NCBI RefSeq assembly: GCF_041886205.1
Contig: NZ_CP169029.1
DNA length: 64,000 nt
Direction: 5' to 3' (one strand)
Source of the DNA: Escherichia coli
Lineage (GTDB): Bacteria > Pseudomonadota > Gammaproteobacteria > Enterobacterales > Enterobacteriaceae
The position numbers and the translations under genes are program-made. This document shows, piece after piece, positions 22,280-25,318 of this stretch. Every line of letters begins with the position of its first letter. The first letter of the stretch is position 1. Below the pieces are notes generated by a model. That model saw only the letters and a list, made by a program, of their open reading frames with translations. It made no database searches and was not told where the DNA came from.

Positions 22280-25200
22280 GTCCATCAGCGCCATCGTTGT
22301 TTTATGTTGAAGCCATCAATTAAATAACCGCACCACATACACTGTACTGTCAGTCATCCGCCGGAGTAAATCCAGCGTCATCGCCATCATGCAGTGAAGT
22401 TTATGTACTGATTTGCCGAAGAAACAGTTTTCGCGTCATGTCCGGTTATCAGCGCAAAGCCGCAGGTGTGCGCGTTCATCAACTCCCGCGTGTACATACG
22501 GAGCTTCATGTCACAACGACATGGCTATTGCCGGGAAGCCTGCTGGTCTTGCCACCGAATTTACAGCTTGTTTTCACCTTCTTTGTGGTGATGTTTGCCA
22601 GGCCACGTGATCAAACTGCTGGATTCACTGTTGTGAAATGTGTGGCCCTCCACCACACACACACACACTGGACCAATGATGCTTGAGCAACATGGTGATT
22701 ATCCTTTTGCCATACATGTCAATGCCCTCCTTTACTGTAACTGACCTTCGAACAAGTCAACGAGCCATCAGGCATGCGCACGTTAGGTGCAGGAATGTTG
22801 CCTAGAAATGTCACTCACACACACACTGTCTCAAATAATTGTTCAGATGCATGGGTACCTGTGTACACACACTCTCTCTTTATATAAAGACTAAATCTAT
22901 GTGGTTTGTAGATGTACATGTCTAGGTCAATGGCAGAAGACTTGACGAGCTGTTTCAATGACTAATTCTTTCCTTGCTGCCGACTGCCACGCCTTGTCGC
23001 CTTTGCCCAATAGCGCAGTATTCCATGAGCACCTCAGCCAATTGCATCTAAATGTTTAACCTTCAACCATTCCTGACTCCACTGTGGTAAGCCCACCACA
23101 CCATGCAAGCCCCAGCTTCAGAGAGGTGACTGGCCAATGGCTTCCTTGATGCATGCCCCCGCTGAGGCCCCAACCCGAGCTGTCACCTTGGGCTATAACG
23201 GTTCAAATTGACCTACACCGGGTGACCGACCTGATCTTTGCCGTTAGATCACGCACAGTCGAACACTTGCACCTGGTGCGTGGGTACCCCTTGTAAATGT
23301 GCAGTGGGCGTGCCACGTGTAACTGCCTTGTCGGCACCCTCGATGAGAGAGACTGACACAGTGTGCCGTCGGATTAGTTCAGAGCCCCAGAGTGCCCACA
23401 TTCCAGAGCTTTGAGCTGCCAGGTGATTAGTGGCACGAACAGGCTTCCCTTGCCAGGAGGACGTGACGGCGCTGAAGAACTTATTTTTTTATACTGCTGT
23501 GTGAACGGTTACACTACTGTGCTATGGGGTTTATGTAGATCCACTTGACCATTGTGTAAGCTGTTAAGAATAGAGTATTAGGGTTTATCATTTTAAGCAT
23601 GCTGTTGTGCGGGTAATGGTTTTTCAGCGATATACCGGGTAAGTGGGTACCAAAGTCGGTCACTCTCAGGCCCTTGTTGATCATGTCATGCTGCTGCATA
23701 GTTGCTGCTGCTGCCTCTTGCTGCCTTATCTTAGTGAGGTCGGCACGTCGGAAGCAGTGCCGCAGGTCGCCTTTCCGGTGTAATAGTTTTTCAGTTGACG
23801 ACGAATATATGTGCCATGGACACTGATTTTTATTGCTGTGGGTGTGTGTGTGCAGGTGGGTAAGAGTTGGACCCCCAAATACCATGTGTCTGTGTCATGC
23901 GCACTTTTGGGGTCAGAGCCCGTGGCGGCAATGGGAACAGTGCCACCAAGTTCAAGAATCCCTTGTGACTAGAAATCAACATTACGATGATCTTCTCCAA
24001 CCCCCACAGGGACCCTCTTCTTTGACTGAAGGGCAAGGGTAATTGGTGCCCTTCCATGGTGGCACGGCCCTAGGTGATGAAGGCTTATAAGAGACTCGAA
24101 CACGTGGAATTTGCTTTGACCTCGTGCTCCAGGGGTATGTTAGACCACCCACCTCTTACCCAGTGAGTGAACAAGTGGTTAATTAATTATTTTGGTGTTG
24201 TTACTGCAATGGCTTGTAGGGTTTGCCCCTCAATTCCAAATGTGTGACGAGAACAGTACCAGGTGAAGCGGGGACCAATTGTCCACGTCGGTACACAGAA
24301 CCACAAGCCCATAAAATATTGTTGTTGCTGTGGAAATGAGTCGAGCCAGCGTCGTCATGGTCAGCGAGATCCTTGCGGCAGTGTGGTGGTGGTATTTATA
24401 GAAGGGTTGTCGTCTTTGCAGAATTGATTTCAATGCCGGACGGTGGATCTTATCAGAGGCGTCAGAGCAGACCCGGCTGCGGTGGTGCTGAGACCTTGTC
24501 AACCACCTTTGCAATTGACTTGTCAATCTGTGTCTTGTGTCGTCATATGGTGGGGTTTGTTCAGTGAGTTGTTAATCATCTGCCAAGCCGACTTGGCCGA
24601 AGTGTAAGCCATCATGCTGACTCTTCCTCACACAGTCAATGTTGTGACTCCCAATCACAGAACCATCGGCACACGATCCATCGCTTGCTCAGGCCAGATA
24701 CCAGCTCCACCAATCTTTACTTTCGGCTCACCGTTGCCGGACTGCATTGTGCGGGCAGCCAGGTGCAAATCGAGCATCTTTCATCGAACTGCACGCCCTG
24801 TGAGGTGAAGCATCTCCATCATCAGTGTTGTGCGGGCCACTCGAATCCGCCTGCGCGAAGCTTTGCTGTTCCCAGACCATCCCGACTGTAGCCAGCTCCA
24901 TCACCAGCCTCGTGAGCCCGCTCTTTGCCAGCGCCAAGCATAGTTCCGGCATCACTGCTCCGTGTTCAAAGGCCGAGCTTGTCAAACGGTCCACCTGGAC
25001 AACAACCACTCGTGCTTTAGGTGTCGCCCATCGAGGTGTTCCATCGCGCCATCGGATAGAGTAGACTCCTCCAGGACTCCATCGAAGAGCTTGCTCGCGC
25101 ACCCAAGTGCGCTCAATGACGCGCTGGCTTCTCTTCACGCTGTGTTACTCGACGGTAGTTCGCAGGCAGTCCGCCCGAAGTAGAGTTGTTTATTCTGATC

Positions 25201-25318
25201 ACGAAGGAGCACAAGCGCCCGATCCGACAGAAGATTTAAAGACATCTCGCTTATGGACTGCGCGTAACAAAGTGCTTGCCAGAAGTGATGAAGTCGGTTT
25301 GCCAGTCGAAGCCGCCGC
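22280..25318. other. about 3.0 kb non-coding, non-E. coli-like segment occupying the position of the hisC 3' end, hisB, hisH, hisA and hisF 5' end; eukaryote-like composition with (CA)n/(GT)n microsatellites
   Basis: No ORF longer than about 135 codons on any frame; short dinucleotide repeats at about 22654-22666, 22815-22826 and 23842-23852 plus a CT run near 22871-22880; abrupt loss of his homology at both edges. Confidence 0.8.

Follow-up and report, generated by a model that had tools for sequence, protein, structure and literature searches.

The central part of the his operon in the window, i.e. the whole 64-kb stretch of DNA analyzed here, is occupied by a 3148-nt block (22276-25423) that was made from the strain's own native hisC'-hisB-hisH-hisA-'hisF sequence and is almost certainly a data artefact, not a biological feature. 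The operon lies on the minus strand. Alignment to relatives demonstrates that the altered stretch stands in place of 3133 nt of native DNA, namely codons 251-356 of hisC, the genes hisB, hisH and hisA, and codons 1-146 of hisF. The length change from the native to the altered sequence is +15 nt, which excludes a strict base-for-base replacement. Position 22276 is the first altered base and 25423 the last, 22275 being the last base that matches the relatives on the hisF side. Against E. coli BKQWHE (L001), the window is 100% identical over 20800-22275 and 25424-26699, and the identity collapses in between.

The first-pass annotation of this DNA had described an in-place, nearly length-preserving substitution at 22280-25318. 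The presence of the block and the character of the substitution (3148 versus 3133 nt, with native flanks on both sides) are borne out, but its limits are redrawn to the positions above, the right boundary moving by ~105 nt. The alignment to the his operon of relatives, which had been proposed there as a check, provides the figure of 3133 nt of missing native sequence. The loss from hisF had been put at ~145 codons, in good agreement with codons 1-146, whereas the estimate of ~67 codons for hisC was too low, since the alignment gives 106 codons. The annotated features of the locus are collected in Table 1. As had been stated, the operon is intact on both sides of the block: HisIE, HisD and HisG are exact known proteins, and the leader is recovered as RF00514 over its full length.

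Table 1. Features of the his locus and dinucleotide runs in the altered block (positions are those of the window).
Feature	Position	Strand	Evidence
hisIE, intact	21332-21943	-	203-aa product matches exactly on >1000 public contigs; DNA 100% identical to E. coli BKQWHE
hisF 3' remnant, native (codons 147-258 and stop)	21937-22275	-	blastx 100% to HisF residues 147-238 (queried part)
Core of the corrupted block, replacing hisF codons 1-146, hisA, hisH and most of hisB	22276-24650		BLAST-unalignable, faintly collinear with native DNA
Graded zone, 5' part of hisB and 3' part of hisC (codons 251-356), degraded yet still recognizable	24651-25423	-	Similarity rises toward hisC
hisC 5' part, native (codons 1-250)	25424-26174	-	100% identical to relatives
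Chimeric ORF, 307 aa, native hisC 5' part running on into junk	25251-26174	-	Product on record nowhere
hisD and hisG, intact	26171-28380	-	Products are exact known E. coli proteins
His leader/attenuator, intact	28427-28550	-	Rfam RF00514, 131.6 bits, full length
(CA)7.5 microsatellite-like run	22654-22668		Sole dinucleotide array found by TRF in the whole window
(CA)5.5 run	22816-22826		Repeat listing
ACACACAC followed by TCTCTCT (AC, then TC)	22865-22880		Repeat listing
(GT)5.5 run	23842-23852		Repeat listing

The flanks of the block are ordinary E. coli DNA. They hardly differ from those of natural O157-type strains: against GCA_052936215.1 (L005), which carries complete hisC, hisB, hisH, hisA and hisF genes, 3 SNPs fall in 16156-22275 and 6 SNPs in 25424-35899 with no gaps, amounting to 9 SNPs in 16.6 kb or ~0.05% divergence. 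Natural loci were retrieved with the exact HisD allele and with the PerB allele. The close relatives found via these alleles (L005, L012) all have intact his genes, and the his genes are intact in all PerB-retrieved loci that extend to the operon. None of these records is identical to the window, the best of them differing by a few SNPs. Outside the block, the window shows no indel errors against the close relatives.

Collinearity with the native hisF-hisA-hisH-hisB-hisC DNA extends over the full length of the block. The similarity is strongest at the hisC end, where 24651-25423 is 65-82% identical to native hisB/hisC and blastn aligns 24651-25243 at 78% identity. Past 25423 the per-100-nt identity is 1.00, and leftward from this position it takes the values of 0.82, 0.77, 0.60, 0.65, 0.43, 0.65, 0.78, 0.70 and 0.64 before reaching the chance level. 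At the left junction (22276), by contrast, the identity falls at once with no gradient. Along the his sense strand, the similarity is graded, with a mild change at 25423 in hisC, a near-chance plateau after ~900 nt, and an abrupt stop in hisF.

The collinearity within the region that BLAST fails to align was demonstrated by exact words and by global alignment. Diagonal 7-mer matches between the block and the native sequence amount to 64 in the offset bin from -60 to 0, versus ~10 expected and elsewhere. Exact collinear anchors of 7-14 nt occur throughout the block; their offset wanders slowly, with jumps of 25-40 nt within ~100 nt. Runs of 7 or more matching nucleotides number 27 in the core, compared with 0-6 in shuffles, and the global alignment score of the block against the native DNA is 634, while shuffles yield -230 ± 14 and the reversed block -235. 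Overall, the block differs from the native sequence at roughly half its positions. In the centre, blastx to HisF, HisA and HisH gave weak matches that are individually non-significant (E 0.3-4), and their sole use was to prompt the k-mer analysis.

The polymorphic sites identify the template. The block carries the own-lineage allele over the O157:H7-type allele by 21:4, and the own-lineage to competing ratios in three further comparisons are 13:1, 17:5 and 13:1, all four counts being obtained with the block aligned to the competing allele. Own-lineage alleles also outnumber K-12 alleles by 16:2, or by 6:0 in the core alone. The block is therefore derived from the strain's own sequence, and the K-12 comparison rules out the unguided reproduction of a his operon from generic or reference E. 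coli. The own-lineage alleles further imply that the native template was available to the process; they exclude a pure continuation of a prompt and contradict autoregressive generation driven by a prompt alone.

The changes disregard codon position and reading frame, and no selection is apparent in them. In the graded zone we counted 97 substitutions (~12%), 85 inserted bases and 17 deleted bases. Mismatch rates at codon positions 1, 2 and 3 are nearly equal (14.1, 14.8 and 13.6%), transitions and transversions stand at 45:44, and 51 of the 55 indels are not multiples of three and break the frame. Single-base insertions copy a neighbouring base in only 7 of 35 cases, i.e. they are not stutter-like. 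A divergent natural his allele was considered and rejected, as both the codon-position neutrality and the frame-breaking indels argue against it.

Coding structure has been lost in the block as a whole. No other part of the window goes as long as 21986-25064 without a stop-free frame of 150 codons or more. The longest ORFs lying wholly within the block encode 136 aa (24728-25138, minus strand) and 123 aa (23514-23885, minus strand), consistent with the earlier statement that no ORF exceeds ~135 codons. The period-3 signal is 0.4-1.0 in the block versus 3-13 in the flanking his and wzzB genes. A second ORF-poor stretch of the window, at 38.9-43.5 kb, was also examined and is natural.

Only the composition of the block is eukaryote-like, as seen in CpG depletion, CA/TG excess and microsatellites. 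The CpG observed/expected ratio is in the range of 0.56-0.62 in the block, and native CpG is retained at 14%, compared with 42% for other dinucleotides. As a null model, we mutated the native template in 2000 simulations with uniform substitutions and indels. The centre of the block has a CpG observed/expected ratio of 0.62, while the native value is 1.23 and the simulation minimum 0.83; its CA/TG ratios are 1.46/1.50, above the simulation maximum of 1.22; and it holds 5 dinucleotide runs of at least 4 units, versus a mean of 0.35 in the simulations. Uniform random mutation of the native segment is thus ruled out, with CpG, CA/TG and dinucleotide runs all outside the simulated range. A shuffle of the native segment is ruled out as well, by a base composition and a length that differ from the native ones. 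The commonest change is C>T, with 142 occurrences versus 44 for G>A, making the substitution spectrum strand-asymmetric.

Dinucleotide runs of at least 5 units number 3 in the 3.1-kb block versus 0 in the remaining 60.9 kb, and the (CA)n/(GT)n microsatellites and the CT run noted previously are indeed present in the block. The rewriting process carries a vertebrate-like compositional prior, which explains the "eukaryote-like" impression of the earlier reader. The internal short repeats of the block fall inside the range seen in natural E. coli segments and are uninformative on self-copying.

The block is absent from the public collections searched. Megablast and blastn find nothing that matches the core (22276-24650) in 5426 complete E. 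coli genomes, in plasmids or in phages, and the block itself is present in 0 of the 5426 complete E. coli genomes. Exact 26-30-mers of the block occur in none of the metagenome, prokaryotic genome and viral collections. Among ~15 billion proteins, there is no record of the HisF remnant, of the 307-aa chimeric HisC or of any of five internal ORFs, whereas HisIE, HisD and HisG, used as controls, were found in the same look-up. An Rfam scan of the block returned no family at E <= 1, and NCBIfam on seven ORFs gave no credible family, the sole match scoring 14.2 bits versus a cut-off of 321. No FRT, loxP, attB, I-SceI, P1/P2, M13, T7 or Tn5 ME sites are present in the block, and no repeats are present at its junctions.

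These searches dispose of several candidates. A non-coding RNA is rejected on the Rfam result. A mobile element (IS, transposon, island or prophage) is rejected on the lack of an NCBIfam family and of junction repeats, and on a net gain of only 15 nt with 3133 nt of native DNA gone. A cassette or vector is rejected on the lack of plasmid or phage similarity, of recombinase or primer scars, and of a coding signal. The block has no function. The earlier opinion of a non-coding block without any encoded biological system is upheld by the lack of a period-3 signal and of any protein or RNA family.

The data support only non-biological readings, and among these we consider a computational origin probable. 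In this scenario, the strain's own hisC-to-hisF segment would have served as the template for a simulator or sequence model whose prior is vertebrate-like; this program would have rewritten or noised the segment, and its output would then have been returned to the same place between the unchanged flanks. We infer that a computational maker is likelier than a cell or a sequencer. This origin is favoured because the rest of the window is error-free, because the insertions are not stutter-like (7/35 copy a neighbour), because the graded zone combines 85 inserted versus 17 deleted bases with 12% substitutions, because the offsets jump by tens of bases, and because the CpG/TG/CA shift and the clean microsatellites have the look of a prior that was learned or simulated, and not of read error.

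The block shares several properties with model-generated or noised DNA. In both, the local statistics are plausible while ORFs, codon periodicity and host composition are lost; the composition is domain-agnostic, i.e. eukaryote-like in a bacterial locus; and the sequence is not in the public collections searched. In both, moreover, the fidelity drops away from the retained context (bioRxiv 10.64898/2026.01.17.700093). The output of autoregressive genome models such as Evo 2 and megaDNA is reported to degrade with distance from the seed (bioRxiv 10.64898/2026.01.17.700093), and the one-sided decay in the block may be said to resemble this behaviour, by analogy only. Unlike a free model continuation, however, the block keeps the strain's alleles and collinear anchors over 3 kb. 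It also loses coding structure within a few hundred bases, which is faster than reported for near-seed prokaryotic generations (bioRxiv 10.64898/2026.01.17.700093).

A sequencing or assembly origin, the main rival, is rather unlikely, although several observations speak for it. Here, a stretch of very low quality from a single long read would have entered the contig and would have stayed unpolished as good reads no longer align to it, and the abrupt end would mark the switch to the next read. The block resembles such a patch in being template-derived with own-lineage alleles and confined to one stretch, in its roughly preserved length (+15 nt in 3.1 kb), in having one graded and one abrupt side, in its strand-asymmetric errors, and in being missing from the other assemblies and collections searched. 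However, the other 61 kb are without indel errors against close relatives, and the his operon, present in a single copy, poses no difficulty to assembly, which leaves no reason for a one-read patch. The insertions are not of the stutter type, and the offset jumps within ~100 nt are larger than typical read errors. The error profile, with its ~12% substitutions and 85:17 excess of insertions, is atypical; to our knowledge, it fits neither nanopore nor PacBio data. Likewise, CpG is selectively destroyed, TG/CA is gained and the (CA)n/(GT)n runs are clean, a combination that we do not know as a read-error signature. These differences, together with the clean surroundings, distinguish the block from an unpolished patch and lead us to prefer the computational origin.

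Deliberate engineering appears improbable. The block might be a scrambled stuffer designed from the native his segment and introduced by allelic exchange to obtain a His auxotroph free of markers, or a locus serving as a neutral control. An engineered allelic replacement of his would likewise sit in place within the operon, between untouched flanks and with nearly preserved length, and would give a His-minus strain, and a stuffer of this kind would be derived from the native sequence as the block is. On the other hand, there is no marker gene, no FRT, loxP, attB, I-SceI or primer-site scar, and no resemblance to plasmids or vectors. Both endpoints fall within codons, and one of them is a gradient instead of a designed junction; a designer would have no reason to grade the similarity or to add microsatellites. 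The sequence was also not found in the public collections searched.

Natural biology is very improbable, whether as a decaying pseudogene, as recombination with a divergent his operon or as local in vivo hypermutation. It would account for the derivation of the block from native his DNA, and C>T is the commonest change. However, flanks of ~0.05% divergence enclose a block in which roughly half of the positions are changed. The lack of third-position bias, the near-equality of transitions and transversions and the frame-breaking indels rule out a functional divergent allele; nothing similar exists among the 5426 E. coli genomes; and the block has no T7 promoter. Targeted mutators (e.g. DGRs or deaminase fusions), as far as is known, make restricted base changes with few indels and at far lower densities. 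It is scarcely credible that the block is real DNA of a living O157-type E. coli, i.e. a 3.1-kb his tract rewritten in vivo by a sharply bounded, directional hypermutation that destroyed CpG, inserted bases and seeded dinucleotide repeats but spared the flanks. The preference of the first-pass annotation for an artefact or a deliberate edit over natural biology thus agrees with our data, namely a frame-broken block changed at about half of its positions between nearly identical flanks.

Foreign DNA, eukaryotic or other, arriving by contamination, chimeric assembly or horizontal transfer can practically be dismissed: the vertebrate-like composition (CpG ratio of 0.56-0.62, TG/CA excess, microsatellites) and the lack of a BLAST-level match to E. 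coli over 22277-24650 would suit it, but the collinearity throughout, the retained own-lineage alleles and the 65-82% identity of 24651-25423 to native hisB/hisC cannot be accounted for by an unrelated donor, and the exact-word scans of the metagenome, prokaryotic genome and viral collections were empty. Unrelated eukaryote-like DNA from contamination or a chimera had been the leading idea in the first-pass annotation, and it is contradicted by these three observations.

If the block were physically real, the operon would yield HisG, HisD and a truncated HisC, with no HisB, HisH or HisA and no start of HisF, and the strain would be a histidine auxotroph. This is in line with the auxotrophy predicted earlier on the same condition, given that hisB, hisH, hisA and the start of hisF are gone and hisC is truncated. 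The main value of the finding lies in quality control: an apparent eukaryote-like replacement of five his genes is a corrupted native copy, and the block should not be read as evidence of horizontal transfer, of engineering at this locus or of a new element. Should the window belong to a deposited assembly, its record holds a 3.1-kb error and falsely predicts histidine auxotrophy. The combination of collinear k-mers, lineage alleles, codon-position neutrality, random-mutation simulation and exact searches for the chimeric ORFs offers a general recipe to distinguish a template-derived artefact from foreign DNA.

The window also contains ordinary recombination mosaicism, of the natural his-gnd type beside the O-antigen cluster. 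The strain is of the O157 O-antigen type (cf. the Santai genome annotation), and its O-antigen cluster is O157-type, whereas its his flanks match an O153/O178-type strain at 100% identity. Natural mosaic segments of this kind carry intact coding alleles that are 1-3% apart (79-99 differences per 3.1 kb), in contrast to the frame-broken block with its changes at about half of the positions.

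The surroundings of the altered his-operon block at gnd-ugd-wzzB-his (window 17270-26700) are a mosaic produced by natural recombination. E. coli strain BKQWHE is identical to the window (100%) across the native his flanks on either side of the block, and the identity between the two is just 78% in ugd (window 19162-20120). The O-antigen cluster of BKQWHE is O153/O178-type, unlike the O157-type cluster of the window. With respect to the window overall, identity is in the order of the close relative L012 (99.7%) > the O157-type genome Santai (98.7%) > the O157:H7-type locus L010 (97.8%); the window is nearer to O157:H16-like and non-H7 lineages (Santai, L012) than to the O157:H7-type locus.

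A second stretch of the window, annotated below as an island remnant, is also poor in ORFs, with no open frame of 150 codons in 39037-40665 or 41838-43349, and its CpG content is mildly low. This stretch matches E. coli TOK-001 at 99.8% with 100% of its length covered, and it is natural.

Annotated features of the window
Feature	Position	Strand	Contents or setting
O157-type O-antigen gene cluster	3346-17089		wzy, wzx, rfbE/perA, gmd, fcl, manC, manB, perB
Transposase pseudogene, ISAs1-family	~15.4-16.4 kb		inside the O-antigen gene cluster region
yefM-yoeB toxin-antitoxin pair	28858-29360		immediately upstream of the his leader
CP4-44-type island remnant	38900-43500		cbtA/cbeA, IS fragments, TonB-receptor pseudogenes
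tRNA-Asn (GTT)	46866-46941	-	
tRNA-Asn (GTT)	49275-49350	-	
tRNA-Asn (GTT)	51099-51174	+	

The three tRNA-Asn genes sit in the yeeO / cbl-nac / ldtA setting, the usual E. coli arrangement, and yefM-yoeB has the same place next to the his leader that it has in reference E. coli. In the 5' end of sbcB (window 35704-35899), four SNPs relative to L005, a closely related natural locus, are packed into 183 nt. This cluster directly adjoins the site of an additional DDE-transposase (IS) gene, which is present in L005 and L009 and absent from the window.

At the hisC side of the block, where divergence is mild, the biggest single event is the clean loss of 14 nt of native hisC at ~25411/25412, located ~12 nt within the block boundary, after which the sequence is ~80% identical to native.
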